A stretch of DNA of 64,000 bases from Chitinophagales bacterium (GTDB lineage Bacteria > Bacteroidota > Bacteroidia > Chitinophagales > JADIYW01), in NCBI GenBank assembly GCA_046329785.1, contig JAXLTZ010000016.1, positions 599 through 64,598 of the forward strand, given 5' to 3'. Below the pieces are notes generated by a model. That model ran no database searches. It was not told the DNA's origin and worked only from the letters and a program-made list of their open reading frames with translations. Shown one piece after another: positions 43,510 through 58,400 of this stretch (the stretch's first letter is position 1; the number at the start of each line of letters is the position of its first letter). The position numbers and the translations under genes are program-made.

Positions 43510-43655
43510 AAATTTGATTTAGTTAGTGATTTAATATTTGAATTTACGGTAGGCGAACGGCTTCAACGCTGTCTATTTTGTTTAGGGGTTTAAAAATCAG
43601 CGGTAGCAGCGAGATCATTTTTACCGCTTTTAAAACTATAAAACTATGAAACCCA

Positions 43656-43671
43656 ATTGCCTCGCGGCAAT
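43656..43671 (-). terminator. Hairpin downstream of the tRNA-like element
   Basis: On the minus strand: ATTGCC-GCGA-GGCAAT followed by TGGGTTTCATAGTTTTATAGTTTT. A second hairpin, AGCGGTA...TACCGCT, lies at 43599-43628. Confidence 0.4.
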
Positions 43672-43682
43672 CAATAGAGTTG

Positions 43683-43805
43683 CTTGGATGAGTGGATTTG
43701 AACCACCGACCTTTGAATACACCTCGCCGAATTTCCAGCATCCTACTTTAGCGATTCGAACCTTTTTGCGATAACATCAACGCTCTACCACTGAGCTACA
43801 ACCAA
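43683..43805 (-). tRNA. tRNA-like element with about 51 nt inserted at the anticodon-loop position (intron-containing tRNA, pseudogene or decoy)
   Basis: On the minus strand: TTGGTTG-TA-GCTCAGTGGTAGAGC-G-TTGAT-[58 nt]-TTCAA-AGGTC-GGTGGTTCAAATCCACT-CATCCAA-G. The acceptor pairs 6 of 7 and the D and T arms are canonical. I found no 5-7-5 anticodon hairpin in the insert. Confidence 0.45.
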
Positions 43806-45671: not shown

Positions 45672-45699
45672 AAAATGCTGCGAGAAATCGCAGCATTTT
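45672..45699. terminator. Bidirectional rho-independent terminator
   Basis: AAAATGCTGCGA-GAAA-TCGCAGCATTTT, a perfect 12-bp stem whose outer A/T runs can serve both orientations. Confidence 0.7.
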
Positions 45700-49911: not shown

Positions 49912-50181
49912 CTATACTTTTTTGCGTGAAATTTTTGCAAGTGCTTTGTTAAATGAAATTCCAAAGTTGTTTTCTATGTCGGTTGCCATTTCTTTCAACA
50001 CTTCAATTAATTTTTCCTGTTCATTTTCTGTCAATTTATATTGCGGAAATTTAGGACTTAATTTCAGTTTTAACGTTGAATGCTTCATGTTGGCTTTAAA
50101 AGCTAAATGTACCTTGTTTAGCTTCCAACCATCTATTATGGTCAATAGATTCTGTAATTGCGTATTGTTTTCGTTGTTCAT
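49912..50181 (-). CDS. Hypothetical protein (start uncertain)
   Basis: The listed ORF overlaps the transposase 3' end by 86 nt. Met32 (nt 50088) would remove the overlap. Confidence 0.4.
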   Translation of the reverse strand: MNNENNTQLQNLLTIIDGWKLNKVHLAFKANMKHSTLKLKLSPKFPQYKLTENEQEKLIEVLKEMATDIENNFGISFNKALAKISRKKV

Positions 50182-51100
50182 TTTCTATCAATTTTTTATA
50201 CGGAAGTTGTGCGGAAATATTTCCTAACATAAAGTTAAATCGGTCACACTCGCTTAATTTTCGAGTGTTGTATCTAAATGAAAATTCATCTAAATAAAGT
50301 TGTAAATGTTTAGCTGACATGCTGTGATATATGCCTACTACACCTCTTTTTAACAGCGACCAATAACCCTCTAAAGTGTTGGTGTGGCAATCACCAACAA
50401 CATATTTTCTATCGTTGTGCTTAACAAATGAGTGTTCGTATAGCTTTTCTAAGCCACGATAGCCGTACCACTCGTCTGTGTGCAATGTTGCACCTTTTGC
50501 CACATTTTCTTTAACGAATTTGTGCAAATTAGTTTGTGATGTATTTGTGATTTTCTTAGCACGAATTTCGCCGCCACGTTCAACTAATCCTGCAACTGCT
50601 GTTTTCGTTTTTAAAGAACGTCCTTGATTTCCATCCGTTCTTTTAGATGCGTGTTTGTTCTTTTCCTCACCGCCAATAAATGTTTCATCAGCCTCAACAA
50701 CACCTGTTAACTTGCCATTGTCCATGCCTAATGTGTGGCGTATTCGGTGCAATAAATACCAAGCTGTTTTTTGTGTCACACCTAAATCACGATGTAATTG
50801 TAAAGATGAAATTCCTTTTTTGTGTGATGTGATTAGGTAAATTCCTGCGAACCATTTTTGCAATGGTATTTTGCTATCTTCAAAAATAGTTCCAACACGC
50901 ACGCTATATTGACGTTTACATTTATCACATTTGTAAACTTTTCCGTTGTTGTATTTGAAAATTTTGTTGTGTCCACAATCTTCATAAGGACATTCTAAAT
51001 TTCCGTTCCAACGAACTAATTCTAAATAATCACGACAAACTTGCTCGTCTTTAAAATAGGCGAGCAAGTCAAGAAGTGTTTTAAATTTTTGTAAGTCCAT
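50096..51100 (-). CDS. IS1595/ISXO2-like DDE transposase homologue
   Basis: N-terminal zinc ribbon (CPYEDCGHNKIF...KCDKCKRQYSVRVGTIFEDSKIPLQKWF), then HKKGISSLQLHRDLGVTQKTAWYLLHRIR and VVEADETFIGG. Confidence 0.8.
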   Translation of the reverse strand: MDLQKFKTLLDLLAYFKDEQVCRDYLELVRWNGNLECPYEDCGHNKIFKYNNGKVYKCDKCKRQYSVRVGTIFEDSKIPLQKWFAGIYLITSHKKGISSLQLHRDLGVTQKTAWYLLHRIRHTLGMDNGKLTGVVEADETFIGGEEKNKHASKRTDGNQGRSLKTKTAVAGLVERGGEIRAKKITNTSQTNLHKFVKENVAKGATLHTDEWYGYRGLEKLYEHSFVKHNDRKYVVGDCHTNTLEGYWSLLKRGVVGIYHSMSAKHLQLYLDEFSFRYNTRKLSECDRFNFMLGNISAQLPYKKLIENEQRKQYAITESIDHNRWLEAKQGTFSF

Positions 51101-53430: not shown

Positions 53431-53766
53431 TTATTTTGTTGCTTTATCTATTGCTTCTTTTATTTGTATCATTGTTGCGCTTTCTGCGTTCCAATAACCT
53501 CTCTCAGCTAAGAATTGAAGTGATTTTCTTGCTTCTTTTAATGCTTCTAATAAATCAGGTGCAGCAGCTATTAGTTTTGCATTCGCTTCGTGCTCTTCAA
53601 ATGATACTCTATAAGCATCATTTAAATGCAAGCTGCATATTCTTTTACCTCTCTGCGCATCAGCCATTATGCTAAATGATTCTATTGTTTTGTGAAACAC
53701 ATATACCCATCCTGTTCCATCGCCTTGTGTGTGTGTTGTTTCGGTGTTTTTTACTAAATTTGTCAT
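53431..53766 (-). CDS. Hypothetical early protein
   Basis: 111-aa ORF containing ANAKLIAAAPDLLEALKEA, a motif I recall from many uncharacterised small phage proteins. Confidence 0.55.
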   Translation of the reverse strand: MTNLVKNTETTHTQGDGTGWVYVFHKTIESFSIMADAQRGKRICSLHLNDAYRVSFEEHEANAKLIAAAPDLLEALKEARKSLQFLAERGYWNAESATMIQIKEAIDKATK

Positions 53767-53811
53767 GATAATAGATTTAAGTAGTTAAGAGGATTTAATT
53801 TTATTGTCGCT

Positions 53812-53841
53812 GGCGTGTTGTTCGAGCAATGCGCCTTTTTT
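53812..53841 (+). terminator. Plus-oriented intrinsic-terminator-like hairpin inside the leftward operon
   Basis: GGCGTGTTG-ttcgag-CAATGCGCC (two G-T wobbles) followed by TTTTTT on the plus strand. The minus-strand side has no U-run. Confidence 0.35.
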
Positions 53842-53844
53842 ATT

Positions 53845-54066
53845 TTATGTTGTAGCTTTTATTTCTGGAAGAAAGCCGACTTCTATACCAATTGAAATAC
53901 CTTTTTCTAAGTATTTGTTTAAATCTTCGTATGATTCAATTGCGCTTTCTGTGTTATCGCCGTGTAAGGCGTAAAGCTGAAATAAACCAGAATTATAAAT
54001 TTCTTTTGCTTTGTCTGTGACATCCATAAAAATAAATTTGTCACTTATCCATGTTCTGTTGCTCAT
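53845..54066 (-). CDS. Hypothetical early protein (first gene of the leftward block)
   Basis: 73-aa ORF next to the divergent control region. Confidence 0.5.
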   Translation of the reverse strand: MSNRTWISDKFIFMDVTDKAKEIYNSGLFQLYALHGDNTESAIESYEDLNKYLEKGISIGIEVGFLPEIKATT

Positions 54067-54359
54067 TGTTGTAATTTTATTTTATGATCAATCGCTTTAT
54101 GTGTATCAATTATTTGATAGTACAAATATAGATAAACTATACTAAATATACAAATGCTATTCTACTATTTAACATATCTAATCTATCTAATATTTGAAAA
54201 CGCTAATAAATACTATATGTTTGGCTTATTTAGAATCTGTATAAATTACATAATTACCTAAAATTAGGTAGTATAGCAATGCTATATCTGACATAGAAAA
54301 CAAATACAATTCGTATCTTTACAACATGAGCAGTAATATGTATTAATTATTAAAATGTA

Positions 54360-54398
54360 CGACCGCCATCGTACAAGGTGTCGACCGCCATCGTACAA
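54360..54398. repeat. Two perfect 17-bp direct repeats CGACCGCCATCGTACAA with a 22-bp period
   Basis: Copies lie at 54360-54376 and 54382-54398. The first sits inside the palindrome GTACGA-CCGCCA-TCGTAC. They are GC-rich relative to their surroundings and end 3 nt before the TTG start at 54401. Confidence 0.85.
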
Positions 54399-54400
54399 CT

Positions 54401-54805
54401 TTGTATGTAAATTTTAATTTCCTCTTTGAATATAAAGAAGACTTGGAAAAAAGGAAGCAATATATTAAGGTTATCGAGCAAGGAACAGACATTGAATCGG
54501 TTCTAGTTCGTGAATACAAGCCATTTAAAAACCAGTCTAAGCGCTTCGTTAAGTTGTACGCCGAATTATTCCCGATCTTGCCTAATTTGACCGCATACGA
54601 AGCTAAAATCTTTTTCTATATTATAGCGAACCTAAAAATGAAATCGAAAACCATTGTTTTAAAACCTGGTAGTTTCAATTTTCACCGCCAAACATTCTAT
54701 AAAGCTATTAACGGTTTAATTGTCTGGGATCTGATTACAAAATCACCGAATACAAACGCACTTTACATCATCAATACTGATTACTATTTCAATGGTCAAA
54801 TATGA
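54401..54805 (+). CDS. RepL-like winged-helix protein (replication or regulatory), TTG start
   Basis: LTAYEAKIFFYIIANL...FHRQTFYKAINGLIVWDLITKSPNTNALYIINTDYYFNG resembles the wHTH and C-terminal NP-x-x-x-F-x-G end of RepL-type proteins as I recall them. There is no in-frame ATG before residue 79. Confidence 0.4.
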   Translation: MYVNFNFLFEYKEDLEKRKQYIKVIEQGTDIESVLVREYKPFKNQSKRFVKLYAELFPILPNLTAYEAKIFFYIIANLKMKSKTIVLKPGSFNFHRQTFYKAINGLIVWDLITKSPNTNALYIINTDYYFNGQI

Positions 54806-54990
54806 TCTAATTCAATAGTCACTTTAATACACGTTATATTTATGATTGTTTAAATGATTTATGATTGTAGGTTAATCCTATGTGTGTGGGTTTTGTGCGT
54901 GGGGATGCTTGCAATTACACGCCAACAAATGTATCTTGCAGCACGCTTGCCGCTGGCGCAGTTAGCACCACGCCACATTGGTTGCATTTG

Positions 54991-55029
54991 CAATAGTTGT
55001 ATAAACAATAGTTGTCATAACAATAGTTG
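54991..55029. repeat. Three CAATAGTTG iterons with an exact 15-bp period
   Basis: Copies lie at 54991-54999, 55006-55014 and 55021-55029. A related CAATAGT lies at 54813-54819. An A-rich tract follows at 55030-55082. Confidence 0.85.
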
Positions 55030-55082
55030 CAAAATAAACTATATTAATAAAAATAAACCCCCAAAACACACCAAAAACAATA

Positions 55083-55110
55083 ACAAGCGTTAACTAGTAT
55101 TAACGCTTGT
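55083..55110. promoter_or_regulatory. Perfect 11-6-11 inverted repeat (candidate tyrosine-recombinase core site, or a terminator hairpin)
   Basis: ACAAGCGTTAA-CTAGTA-TTAACGCTTGT. The right arm plus one base (TTAACGCTTGTA) recurs at 55331-55342. Confidence 0.45.
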
Positions 55111-55495
55111 ACTTTTACATCGGCATGGAATTACTTTCTTTCGGTTTTATCATACTTATATTAGTTTAAATATTACTTGTATTACTTGTTTGAATTGAAT
55201 TTCCTTTTTTCTAGGGTACTCCTTGCGCCATGTTCGATTTTCCTGCGATGCGACCGGTGGGTGCTACATAACGGCACCTCGACACCGCAACCACATAAAT
55301 CACACAACAAAAAGTGTTAAAAAGTAAAAATTAACGCTTGTAAGTTGTGTTTTTTCCAATAAATCACTATCTTTGTGATGATAAAAGCATCAAATATATA
55401 GCATGATGTATCAAAATGTACAGTTGTAGTAGAAGGATTTTTAGGCGAGTATTTGTGATTGATTATTGGTCTGAAATGGCAGTTTTTAGTGGTAC

Positions 55496-55525
55496 TTTGG
55501 TAGTTTTGGGTAGTGATTTGGTAGT
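55496..55525. repeat. Three TTTGG(G)TAGT direct repeats in a G/T-skewed tract
   Basis: Copies lie at 55496-55504, 55505-55514 and 55517-55525. A related TTTAGTGGTAC lies just upstream. Confidence 0.7.
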
Positions 55526-55623
55526 GATGTGAGTGGTGGTTGCGTGTGTGATAAAATCATTACTGAGGTTTGGTAATGAAATGGGTGATAAGGATTCTTT
55601 AATATTTGTAAAAAGCAGGTAAA

Positions 55624-55872
55624 ATGGTAACGGAATTTCAATTTGTAGGGCTATCCAAAAATAAAAGATTCACACTTTATGATAACACAAAAAAGCGTGA
55701 TGTGTTTTGGTCATTTTCCAATTTAGCGGATGATCGCTTTAATGCACTATGGAATTATTTTGTTGGCGGTGGCAAATGGACTGGAAACGAAAAGGCGATT
55801 ATAAAGCATGATGGACTTACATCACAAGGCACACCTATAAATCCTGTAATTATTGAAGTAAAATTACCTTAA
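55624..55872 (+). CDS. Hypothetical protein
   Basis: 82-aa ORF, the first gene after the non-coding region. Confidence 0.5.
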   Translation: MVTEFQFVGLSKNKRFTLYDNTKKRDVFWSFSNLADDRFNALWNYFVGGGKWTGNEKAIIKHDGLTSQGTPINPVIIEVKLP

Positions 55873-55885
55873 TCAAATAATCAGT

Positions 55886-56368
55886 ATGAATACAAGACAA
55901 ACACTAAGTAATCTTTTATCTTTTCTCATCGATAATCGAATCGGTGGAACAACAACACTAATTGAAAAAACAGCAATAGAAAATGATTGTAAAATCATAG
56001 TTCATACCGACCATGGTAAAAAGGAATTCAAATCACCAATGGTTCGTGAAAAGTGCGTATCGTTTAGTGACTTGAAAAATCATTTGGGTAAAAAGGCAGT
56101 TCCGGTTTTAATTGACAATGCAGCATTGATTAAATTTCTGGAAATGTCAATACAGGAAATTAGTATGCACGAATGGATTCCGATAGTTAAATTTCCGAAG
56201 AATTACGATGAAGACCACGACGACAATCGTTTTCTTATCTATGATGAAACGTATGGTACACAAGCAGCGATTTATGATAGTGGTAGATTTTTTGTTCCGC
56301 TTACAACAGGAGTTAAAGAGTTTTTCCCAAAGTTCTATCGTCAATTACCTAAGGCACCGAATCAATAA
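55886..56368 (+). CDS. Hypothetical protein
   Basis: 160-aa ORF. Confidence 0.55.
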   Translation: MNTRQTLSNLLSFLIDNRIGGTTTLIEKTAIENDCKIIVHTDHGKKEFKSPMVREKCVSFSDLKNHLGKKAVPVLIDNAALIKFLEMSIQEISMHEWIPIVKFPKNYDEDHDDNRFLIYDETYGTQAAIYDSGRFFVPLTTGVKEFFPKFYRQLPKAPNQ

Positions 56369-56376
56369 ACAACACC

Positions 56377-56571
56377 ATGAGCAACTACGCACTTAACAAT
56401 CAATTTATGCATGCATTCGTTCAAAGACGATATTGCACATTTTGCGGTGAGGAAATCGAACGAAAGTTTATAAATGGTAAATTTTCACATTATGATTTTA
56501 ATCACAAGTGCAAATCGTTCCTTGAACGAATGAAAAGTAATTTTGATAACATACCAAAAAATAATCAGTAA
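56377..56571 (+). CDS. Small hypothetical protein with Cys/His pairs
   Basis: CTFCGEE...HKCKS. Confidence 0.45.
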   Translation: MSNYALNNQFMHAFVQRRYCTFCGEEIERKFINGKFSHYDFNHKCKSFLERMKSNFDNIPKNNQ

Positions 56572-56572
56572 A

Positions 56573-56803
56573 ATGGAAATAGGGAAAAAATATAAATTAA
56601 TAGAAGATAAAGAATATCAAGCAAAGCATTATAACGTACTTAATGGTGAAGAAGTTGTTAGTAATACTGGCGTGTTGGAAAAGTTTTATGAAAAAACAGG
56701 TATTTGTGTTTTATCTGTAAAAATAAAATATCACTATAACGATGGAATAATAAAAGACACAAACATTTATGTAAATAAAGACGACCTAACATTAATTAAC
56801 TAA
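56573..56803 (+). CDS. Hypothetical protein (start moved to MEIGKKY)
   Basis: The ATG at 56573 follows the upstream stop (56569-56571) directly. Confidence 0.45.
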   Translation: MEIGKKYKLIEDKEYQAKHYNVLNGEEVVSNTGVLEKFYEKTGICVLSVKIKYHYNDGIIKDTNIYVNKDDLTLIN

Positions 56804-56818
56804 AAATAACTCAGCAGT

Positions 56819-57835
56819 ATGGAAATCTTATCAGTAAATCAAAAAGGCACAGCTTCTACATTCGTCAGGAATGAAAGTGATGAAGCAATCTTCGCTCGCT
56901 ATCTGGCGGAAAGCGACTTCAAGGAAGGTACAAAACGAGTATATCGTGCCGGACTACGCGGACTCTATTCCTGGATGCTCGCAAATAACTACACGCTTGA
57001 AAAAATCTCGCGTATTGAAGTGATTAGCTACAAAAATGGATTACAGGGCACAAAGCTGTCACACAAAAGCAAGACAGCATATTTTCAAGCACTATTGTGC
57101 TTTTTCAAATGGTATGGCGCCGAGTTTAATGGCGGCAAGAACATTGCTGCAGGAGTCAGCGGATTCGATAATATCGTGGATTTTCAAAAAGATGCACTCA
57201 CTGATGATGAATTTAAAAAAATATTGAAGGCATCGCTGGCCAAAGACACCTTTGTGCGTTACCGGAATTTTGCGATCATCTGGATATTGGGCACAACCGG
57301 TATGCGCGGATCTCTAAGTGCGCGGAACCTGAAATGGAGCGATTTGGTTAGGCGTGAATGTATAGATGATAAAGGCAATGTGAGTCTGCGCGACTTCATT
57401 CGTTATACAAAAAAAGGCAAAGGCTTCAAGGAAGATTATGTGCCAATTAATGATAGTACGTATTTGAAACTGATGGCCTGGTATAAACAGGTTGAGCATT
57501 GGTACGGCAGGGTAGAGCAGGACTGGCCTATATTTTATTCACTACGCTTCGATCTTGCGAAAAAGCATCAGGAGCCGGCGCATCTAAGTGATAGCGGTTT
57601 TCGTGATTTGGTGCGTGGAATGATGAAAGATGCTGGCGTTTGGAGTAAAACTAAAAGCATGCACAGTATTCGCCATTATTTTGCAACCATGATACTTCGT
57701 CAGACGAATGGCGATAAGGAATTTGTGCGCGGACTACTTGGACACAGTTCGACAAAAGTCACCGATACCTATACGCGTCAGGCGGACAGGTTTTTGGCTG
57801 CAAGTAAAATTCAAGATATAAAATTTGCTGAGTGA
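56819..57835 (+). CDS. int: Tyrosine recombinase / phage integrase family
   Basis: An N-terminal SAM-like region, then MRGSLSARNLKWSDL (catalytic Arg region), HSIRHYFATMILRQ and LLGHSSTKVTDTYT (H-x-x-R ... H ... Y). Confidence 0.9.
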   Translation: MEILSVNQKGTASTFVRNESDEAIFARYLAESDFKEGTKRVYRAGLRGLYSWMLANNYTLEKISRIEVISYKNGLQGTKLSHKSKTAYFQALLCFFKWYGAEFNGGKNIAAGVSGFDNIVDFQKDALTDDEFKKILKASLAKDTFVRYRNFAIIWILGTTGMRGSLSARNLKWSDLVRRECIDDKGNVSLRDFIRYTKKGKGFKEDYVPINDSTYLKLMAWYKQVEHWYGRVEQDWPIFYSLRFDLAKKHQEPAHLSDSGFRDLVRGMMKDAGVWSKTKSMHSIRHYFATMILRQTNGDKEFVRGLLGHSSTKVTDTYTRQADRFLAASKIQDIKFAE

Positions 57836-57889
57836 TGAAAAAAAGAAGAATCAATTGCAGTAGAAAATAATTTACATTAAACACCAACC

Positions 57890-58048
57890 ATGAGCAACAA
57901 CATCGGCAACAAACTATTCCGAATGGATATAGTGAAAAAGAGAGACAAGCGCGGAAACGTTTTGCGGCTTTGTGTCAGGCTGCGAAGCGTTGGAATTGAG
58001 CATTGGGGCAGCTTGCACAAAACCGATGTTATACGCTGGCACGGGTAA
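57890..58048 (+). CDS. Small basic hypothetical ORF (52 aa)
   Basis: MSNNIGNKLFRMDIVKKRDKRGNVLRLCVRLRSVGIEHWGSLHKTDVIRWHG. It is co-oriented with its neighbours and is preferred over the antisense 57877..58074 ORF. Confidence 0.3.
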   Translation: MSNNIGNKLFRMDIVKKRDKRGNVLRLCVRLRSVGIEHWGSLHKTDVIRWHG

Positions 58049-58094
58049 TTTAGTAGGAACTTAATTTGAAACACAAATAAAAATCACACAAGCA

Positions 58095-58400
58095 ATGGCA
58101 ACAATAATTTATGAAATACCAAACTCCGTAAAGGAAATGTTCGAACAAGGCGAAAATAGTTATCGCATTATTGACTATTCAATACAGGAAATGGACAATA
58201 TTCAAAGTATGCAACATTTCCTTGACTGCATAGGAGCGACAACAGATAATATCGAAACAGACGATGGGACGCAGGTAGTAATTGTTCATCCCGATTTTGA
58301 CCACAAACTTGTAATTGATAGTGGTGGGTTGGGTGATTTTTATTCTCACGGTTATGACGTAACTCTCTATTCGGAGACGGTCAGTAGTGCTTGCGTATAA
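58095..58400 (+). CDS. Hypothetical acidic protein
   Basis: 101-aa ORF. Confidence 0.5.
   Translation: MATIIYEIPNSVKEMFEQGENSYRIIDYSIQEMDNIQSMQHFLDCIGATTDNIETDDGTQVVIVHPDFDHKLVIDSGGLGDFYSHGYDVTLYSETVSSACV

Follow-up and report, generated by a model that had tools for sequence, protein, structure and literature searches.

A perfect palindrome upstream of a phage-encoded Xer-type recombinase gene, with a partial copy at the recombinase promoter, as a candidate recombination site

A phage contig from a Chitinophagales bacterium contains a perfect 11-6-11 inverted repeat (site 1) whose arm sequence recurs as an exact third half-site immediately upstream of the putative promoter of the operon encoding the phage's tyrosine recombinase, and both the arms and the third half-site are unchanged in the one independent relative found for this phage. 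We put at about even the chance that the palindrome is a dif- or lox-like target of the phage's own recombinase and that the copy at the promoter is an autoregulatory site. The window refers throughout to the whole stretch of DNA analysed, 64,000 nucleotides in length, corresponding to positions 599-64598 of a 69,950-bp contig (C8) in a 3.2-Mb assembly (G000) of 51 contigs that is 86% complete.

Phage DNA extends along the whole contig, with genes coding for a terminase, holin, muramidase, DnaB-like helicase, replication initiator, RecT, several DNA methyltransferases and virion proteins, and plus-strand ORFs run through both contig ends such that there is no host flank. The palindrome sits in a 1.5-kb gap (54067-55623). 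A long block of leftward genes adjoins the gap on one side, and on the other a short operon runs rightward with the recombinase gene as its last gene. A domain scan of the window ORFs reveals no plasmid-partition genes, ARAGORN calls no tRNA in the window, an Rfam search of 53500-56500 returns nothing beyond one chance-level match, and a DNA search of the phage collection gives no match. No RNA sequencing run is listed as containing this stretch. The phage early gene block also includes an IS1595-family transposase gene at 50096-51100 on the minus strand (DDE_Tnp_IS1595, 1e-43, together with a zinc ribbon). The features in and around the gap are as follows.

54401-54805, plus strand: gene for a RepL-like winged-helix protein, reading toward the palindrome, with an orthologue in the same place in the related phage contig G045
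54975-55034, plus strand: three direct repeats with a ACAATAGTTG core and a 15-nt period, between the RepL-like gene and the palindrome
55083-55110, no strand assigned: site 1, a perfect 11-6-11 inverted repeat composed of ACAAGCGTTAA (55083-55093), CTAGTA (55094-99) and TTAACGCTTGT (55100-55110)
55111-55121, plus strand: conserved U-rich tail, ACTTTTACATC in the window, ACTTTTTACATCC in G045 and ATTTTTTACATCC in the metagenome contig L010
55207-55241, no strand assigned: conserved block between sites 1 and 2, TTTTCTAGGG.ACTCCTTGCGCCATGTTC.ATTTT, with the 18-nt exact word ACTCCTTGCGCCATGTTC at 55218-55235
55310-55342, no strand assigned: site 2, an exact third half-site TTAACGCTTGTA (55331-55342) and a degenerate inverted partner AAAAGTGTTAA (55310-55320, 9/11)
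55344-55379, plus strand: putative Bacteroidota-type promoter of the recombinase operon, GTTG (-33-like), 20 nt, and the -7 box TATCTTTG (55368-55375)
55477-55527, plus strand: G/T-rich repeats TTTGGTAGTGA with a 21/11-nt period, in the C-poor leader of the recombinase operon
55624-56803, plus strand: four small ORFs (82, 160, 64 and 86 aa) in the promoter-to-recombinase interval, absent in G045
56819-57835, plus strand: gene for an Xer-type two-domain tyrosine recombinase of 338 aa (PF00589, 7e-16)

The original prediction described site 1 as a perfect inverted repeat with the geometry of dif sites, and a re-reading of the sequence bears out both points: pairing stops outside 55083-55110, where the flanking A residues at 55082 and 55111 are unpaired, and the 11-6-11 arrangement is the one given for dif, Bsdif and archaeal XerA sites in PMC5357621. 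Two inverted arms around a short centre, as in sites with arms of ~11-13 bp and centres of 6-8 bp, are present in both phages, arranged 11-6-11 in the window and 14-6-14 in G045. Neither spacer, CTAGTA in the window or CTGTTA in L010 and G045, is self-complementary, and the sites are thus asymmetric and directional. The exact 11-mer arm is found in three places only in the 64-kb window, these being the two palindrome arms and the 55331-55342 region, and five times in the 3.2-Mb assembly, with three copies lying within 260 bp and the two elsewhere (on contigs C4 and C17) corresponding to chance level. Perfect inverted repeats with arms of at least 10 and spacers of 4-9 occur at four places in the 64-kb window, and the one at 45672 is plainly a bidirectional terminator. 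By itself, site 1 is therefore weak evidence; the cluster of three copies and the conservation across phages exceed chance.

The protein encoded at 56819-57835 is, as originally predicted, the only tyrosine recombinase in the window (the sole PF00589 match among 72 ORFs scanned), and the distance of 1.7 kb from the palindrome is also correct, with the gene starting 1709 nt downstream. Its catalytic residues are R163, K199, H282, R285, H309 and Y318, the first five of which are invariant and the last at least 90% conserved in an alignment of 69 sequences. It matches the XerD, XerC, XerA and XerS models from end to end with values of 1e-19 to 1e-22, far under the family cutoffs, and does not reach the equivalog thresholds of XerD (72.6 bits vs 329.6) or XerC (68 vs 335); full-length matches are also obtained to XerA, XerH, IntI4 and XerD chains, and a domain search gives PF00589 and a weak SAM-like match only. 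In an AlphaFold model (pLDDT 91.6), residues 1-20 are disordered, a core-binding domain of four helices begins at residue 21 and the catalytic domain follows; no further domain precedes these at the N terminus. The top Foldseek matches are XerA and XerH on palindromic difH (TMq 0.67), followed by IntI4, a lambda Int core fragment and Cre, with 15-17% identity to the Cre chains. As modelled, the enzyme belongs with the simple recombinases that act on short symmetric sites, and is not a lambda-type integrase with arm-type sites. A protelomerase acting at a telomere site was also considered and rejected, the enzyme having 338 aa and an Xer fold.

The nearest annotated homologues, at 23-29% identity, are encoded by small plasmids of Flavobacterium, Tenacibaculum, Staphylococcus and Streptococcus, and the Flavobacterium and Tenacibaculum loci that were inspected adjoin DnaB-like or ParA genes. 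The lineage is a sparse one, with four proteins at E <= 1e-20 in a set of 5.8 billion (100, 72, 71 and 62% identity), four representatives at E <= 1e-30 and 133 at E <= 1e-10 among 1.84 billion, and one weak match only among 50,697 phage records. A perfect palindrome lies upstream of the recombinase gene at one of three plasmid loci, that of Flavobacterium (11-5-11), and neither of the two Tenacibaculum loci has an upstream palindrome with perfect arms of at least 9, such that the plasmids do not offer consistent support. The Flavobacterium palindrome, GTCTATATTCT-TTTAT-AGAATATAGAC at 2293-2319 of locus L028 (plasmid NZ_CP092372.1), is ~400 nt upstream of the recombinase gene and is adjoined by four iteron-like repeats and two copies of GTAAACAATGTTTAC.

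Just 3' of the recombinase gene in the window there is an element (57956-58084) whose depth is 5-7 times that of its surroundings in four metagenome runs, and which is covered by many short contigs with differing flanks. It is present as a single copy in the window, has no Rfam match, and consists of a long imperfect hairpin (about 57965-58025) and then CTGGCACGGGTAATTTAG, ahead of an ORF at 58095-58400; we take CTGGCACGGGTAATTTAG to resemble a -24/-12 promoter. In two genomes of the genus, small contigs have related copies of this element immediately 5' of DNA methyltransferase genes.

Relatives of the phage were sought by exact-arm pattern scans of three public collections, followed by BLAST against the window. 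The scans return 15 loci (one viral, five metagenome and nine genome), and only L006 and L010 are related to the window; L006 is part of G045, a viral contig of 57.8 kb, and L010 is a short metagenome contig of the same lineage, giving one independent relative. The other 13 loci (Vibrio, Clostridia and others) have nothing else in common with the window. Protein scans of viral contigs find no relative with the recombinase alone, and only G045 with two- and four-sequence recombinase and structural-protein alignments. A pattern combining the half-site with the promoter gives three further matches, all in an unrelated coding region, and these were discarded.

The structural genes of G045 and the window share 65-87% amino acid identity and the recombinases 69%, and the regulatory gaps (~1.6-1.8 kb) are mostly unalignable. 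The palindrome in G045 is a perfect 14-6-14 repeat, AGTACAAGCGTTAA-TAACAG-TTAACGCTTGTACT, with a spacer that reads CTGTTA in the window orientation, and the right-arm consensus of site 1 in the two phages extends to TTAACGCTTGTACT. Both arms of site 1 and the third half-site are identical in G045 and L010, and the spacer differs from that of the window at two of its six positions. The longest exact words common to the two gaps are of 21 nt (left site 2) and 19 nt (the right arm of site 1 with its tail, ending in ACTTTT), followed by words of 18 nt (55218-55235), 17 nt (the third half-site), 14 nt (the leftward promoter region) and 13 nt (the left arm). In shuffled sequences (n=200) the longest shared word is usually 11-13 nt, and 17 nt is reached in 1/200; all of the 21-, 19-, 18- and 17-nt words except the 18-nt one fall on the sites. 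In G045 the recombinase gene comes directly after the sites, starting about 680 nt from the palindrome, and is the first gene past the promoter, where the window has four unrelated small ORFs in between. The link between sites, promoter and recombinase is thus conserved, whereas the intervening content is not. The sites track the recombinase (69%) and not the faster-evolving RepL-like protein (31%), which has other repeats beside it in G045; the comparison covers a single independent relative, whose arms are identical.

Contigs from four wastewater-labelled runs, belonging to four different studies, bridge the palindrome intact (X1 54698-55750; X2 54870-57970; X7 54939-55188 and 55079-55278; X9 54906-55361). 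Leaving aside 65 with less support, the differences from the window are at 55054, 55112, 55122, 55127, 55128, 55213 and 55268, with indels at 55158 (+21) and 55182 (-9), and none of those listed is within 55083-55110 or 55330-55342, which for the diverged X7 and X9 contigs falls short of proof of invariance. No joints at site 1 are seen in the contigs of the four runs, a type of data from which rare recombinant forms are dropped. Three of the four runs have contigs that share an allele at 55112-55128, just to the right of the palindrome, consisting of C>G, G>A, G>A and G>A.

The recurrence of the half-site at 55331-55342 had been noted in the original prediction, and the exact match proves to be longer than stated, with the 13-mer ATTAACGCTTGTA present at 55099-55111 and again at 55330-55342. 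The inverted partner of this half-site is degenerate in both phages, and the spacer of site 2 is A-rich, with 10 nt in the window and 11 nt in G045. The consensus for Bacteroidota promoters, as given in PMC7366714, is TAnnTTTG (-7) and TTTG (-33). At the putative promoter of the recombinase operon, G045 has TTTG 20 nt upstream of the -7 box where the window has GTTG, the 12-mer TATCTTTGTGAT containing the -7 box TAnnTTTG is common to both, and the -7 box begins 25 nt past the third half-site in the window and G045 alike. The leader that follows (55380-55623) is G/T-rich and C-poor in both phages, which have GAAATGGGTGAT and the 11-mer GGTAGTGATTT of the right repeat array in common.

The conserved block at 55207-55241 is at a similar distance from the palindrome in the window and G045. 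No coding, promoter or RNA-family explanation was found for it, and as a DNA pattern it matches G045 only among the viral contigs. Small ORFs between the two sites were rejected as genes, with conservation limited to 8 residues across the block. An invertible promoter, switching between sites 1 and 2, was also set aside for now: the arm-adjacent bases differ (CTAGTA vs TAAAAA), the spacer of site 2 is 10-11 nt, and contigs of the four runs show no strand-changing joint.

A RepL-like gene directly upstream of the palindrome was part of the original prediction, and this is upheld as to position and, as to identity, as a lead. Language-model features of the protein match viral clusters at 0.94, with 25 of 30 matches in clusters in which 19-76% of the members carry RepL (PF05732), but the Pfam RepL model (PF05732) does not match it even at E up to 5, and we regard the RepL assignment as a lead and not as family membership. 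Weak Pfam winged-helix matches are to TrmB and, for the G045 orthologue (31% identity, E 3e-15), to Phage_rep_O and SarA/Rot. The RepL-like ORF starts at a TTG, and just in front of it (54360-54398) there are two copies of a perfect 17-nt direct repeat, CGACCGCCATCGTACAA, at a spacing of 22; the repeat overlaps a short hairpin.

Direct-repeat arrays do flank the palindrome on both sides, at 54975-55034 and 55477-55527, but the suggestion that these are arm-type sites is made unlikely by the absence of an arm-binding domain from the recombinase and by the replacement of the left array in G045 with unrelated repeats (AATATACAATAC twice and a 17-mer twice). A lambda-type attP would be expected to have conserved flanking arm repeats and an enzyme with an N-terminal arm-binding domain; the right arrays share only an 11-mer, and the recombinase model is structured from residue 21. 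It is more probable that the repeats at 54975-55034 serve the RepL-like protein as iterons than that they are arm sites for the recombinase. The repeats change with the RepL-like protein and the palindrome is fixed with the recombinase, and it is mainly from this that we infer that the repeats belong to the former and the palindrome to the latter.

The hairpin formed by site 1 is stable (-13.6 kcal/mol on the plus strand, z -4.0) and is flagged as terminator-like on both strands. It has the stem-loop and U-tract of an intrinsic terminator, with a tail of only 4-6 U; the plus-strand tail is U-rich in all three sequences (ACUUUUACAU in the window, ACUUUUUACAU in G045 and AUUUUUUACAU in L010), and the RepL-like ORF reads toward the hairpin in both phages. 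A plain intrinsic terminator, possibly bidirectional, between the RepL-like gene and the recombinase operon is nonetheless improbable, as it leaves unexplained the exact third arm copy 220-390 nt away in both phages, and the 22-28 arm positions that are unchanged while the loop and flanks change. Moreover, only 4/11 stem pairs are G-C, the minus-strand tail is not conserved, and the hairpin is 277 nt past the stop codon in the window and about 400 nt past it in G045. Conservation of sequence rather than of structure would suit operators for a regulator other than the recombinase, with a phage or host factor controlling the recombinase operon and insulating it from the RepL-like module without any recombination. 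The third half-site is immediately upstream of the -33 and -7 elements with identical spacing in both phages, and the region between divergent gene blocks is the usual place for phage switch operators. We consider this explanation rather doubtful, however, as no conserved candidate regulator is encoded nearby, and the recombinase and the RepL-like protein are the only neighbours common to the two phages; the predicted recognition helix of the RepL-like protein differs between them, and the half-site is absent from the conserved leftward promoter region. The centre-to-centre distance of the half-sites, 17 bp, is typical of tyrosine recombinase sites and not of helix-turn-helix dimers.

The palindrome could also serve a temperate phage as the attP core when it integrates into a chromosome, a reading that has the same geometry and enzyme evidence in its favour as a resolution site, and the difference in spacer between the phages is as expected for different attB targets. 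This is improbable, given that a search of the 86%-complete host assembly for the 28-mer with up to 8 mismatches finds site 1 alone, and that relatives of the recombinase are present in 0/44 other genomes of the family (E <= 1e-30), 0/400 of the order (E <= 1e-25) and 0/400 of the phylum; the order sample includes the 44 family genomes, and ~800 genomes from the host's phylum were sampled in all. The palindrome is also uninterrupted in both phage contigs, the contig ends fall inside phage ORFs, and there is a better attP-like candidate at 43632-43681. This 50-nt segment borders a phage tRNA gene on that gene's 3' side. Its counterpart in the host genus, with which it shares 90-94% identity, is an intergenic terminator region that is syntenic and single-copy and occurs in 25/32 other genomes of the genus and 0/12 genomes of the family's other five genera; by its sequence the segment ties the phage to this host genus. 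The homology boundaries are the same (query positions 15-64) in 21 of 30 matches outside the phage contig, and among the remaining matches four weaker ones end at position 54 or 58, one ends at 63, and three include the left part only. The segment has the look of a common core for attP and attB, or alternatively of a host terminator that the phage has captured. Were this recombinase to integrate the phage at the segment, the palindrome would be neither the integration site nor the recognition sequence of the enzyme. The segment contains no copy of the half-site and is not found in the G045 fragment. No prophage junction is present at the host locus in the genomes inspected, one of which (G007) duplicates the whole host locus; in another (G016) two contigs break inside the 50-nt core, with host DNA on both sides. 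The adjacent tRNA gene (43683-43805, minus strand) has ~60 extra nucleotides in the anticodon-loop region, scores 47.3 bits with the Rfam tRNA model against a gathering threshold of 29, is not called by ARAGORN, and may be an intron-bearing or disrupted phage tRNA. Mimicry of the host dif site by an Xer-exploiting element was considered separately and rejected, as there is no similar site in the host assembly.

With the palindrome as a target of the phage recombinase, one recombinase monomer would bind on each 11-14-bp arm of site 1, with strand exchange across the asymmetric 6-bp spacer, by analogy with dif, difH or loxP. Replicated phage genomes would be resolved or circularised at site 1 in the style of Cre/lox or Xer/dif, and recombinase bound at site 2, abutting the -33 element of its own operon promoter, would regulate its own expression. 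The hairpin of site 1 and its U-rich tail may in addition stop transcription from the RepL-like gene. Binding, cleavage, autoregulation and the biological role are what we infer here from the sequence features, their conservation and the class of enzyme. Both phages encode, near the site, a two-domain recombinase with a complete catalytic set; the distance is 1.7 kb in the window and about 0.7 kb in G045. In PMC10250229, about half of the palindromes tested within 1 kb of Cre-type recombinase genes prove to be substrates for the enzyme, and xerS is described in PMC5357621 as immediately beside difSL in one module. Several observations count against the reading: site 1 is 1.7 kb from the gene in the window, the half-site at -37 to -48 suits an ordinary transcription factor, the hairpin and conserved U-rich tail fit a terminator, there is a single relative, and a palindrome accompanies the plasmid homologues in one of three cases.

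If the recombinase does bind here, resolution or circularisation is the most likely role, because the site adjoins a RepL-like module and because neither an integrated relative in the genomes sampled nor an attB in the host assembly is found. The plasmid-type homologues, the RepL-like module and these absences favour resolution or circularisation, with chromosomal integration only somewhat less probable. The suggestion in the original prediction of a Cre-like resolvase rather than an integrase fits with this, as neither an integrated relative nor an attB-like host site was found. More tentatively, and with considerable doubt, the phage may be a part-time plasmid that couples a RepL-type replicon, whose iterons are lineage-specific, to a single-Xer/dif-like resolution module of its own, with the recombinase sensing the occupancy of its own site through the degenerate promoter copy and forming with its target a new orthogonal pair. 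A recombinase with a target site of its own is a kind of module to be expected biologically, and none of the findings overturns current understanding. Orthogonal recombinase/target pairs are sought as genome-engineering tools, according to PMC10250229, and the pairing, if true, would provide one with a short 6-bp spacer from a nearly empty Xer-type branch. A further implication would be that an uncultured wastewater phage with promoters of apparent Bacteroidota type is maintained like a plasmid. To our knowledge, plasmid-like phages have hardly been described in the Bacteroidota.

Among known systems, intrinsic terminators resemble site 1 in having a stem-loop and then a U-rich tract downstream of an ORF, but invariance of the arm sequence and an extra exact half-site, as at site 1, are not among their properties. 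The single-recombinase modules XerS/difSL of streptococci, XerH/difH of Helicobacter and XerA/dif of archaea likewise combine one two-domain Xer recombinase with inverted arms of ~11 bp. Archaeal XerA/dif has the same 11-6-11 arrangement as here (PMC5357621), and XerA and XerH-difH are the best structural matches of the phage recombinase as modelled. The phage module differs from these in its location on a phage contig and not at a chromosome terminus, in a protein that is far below the XerC, XerD, XerS and XerA cutoffs, and in arms that form a perfect palindrome with a second, degenerate site on a promoter. We know of no link between the phage module and FtsK.

The Cre/loxP system of the phage-plasmid P1 and other Cre-type pairs, as described in Jelicic et al. 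2023 (PMC10250229), similarly consist of a phage-borne simple recombinase and a palindromic target upstream of its gene, with a spacer that is free to differ between lineages, as it does here. The likeness to Cre/loxP in role would be that the genome of a plasmid-like phage is cyclised or its dimers are resolved. P1, too, has a RepL lytic replicon. The phage module departs from that of P1 in the arrangement of the site, 11(14)-6-11(14) compared with 13-8-13 for loxP, in the low identity (15-17%) of its recombinase to Cre chains, and in the absence of partition genes from the phage window. In the TnpI/IRS system of Tn4430 and the ResD/rfsF system of plasmid F, core inverted repeats are accompanied by extra copies of the motif near the recombinase promoter or origin, coupling resolution to regulation. 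The accessory motifs of Tn4430 are directly beside the core, whereas the extra site in the phage is 220-390 bp away and has a degenerate partner of its own.
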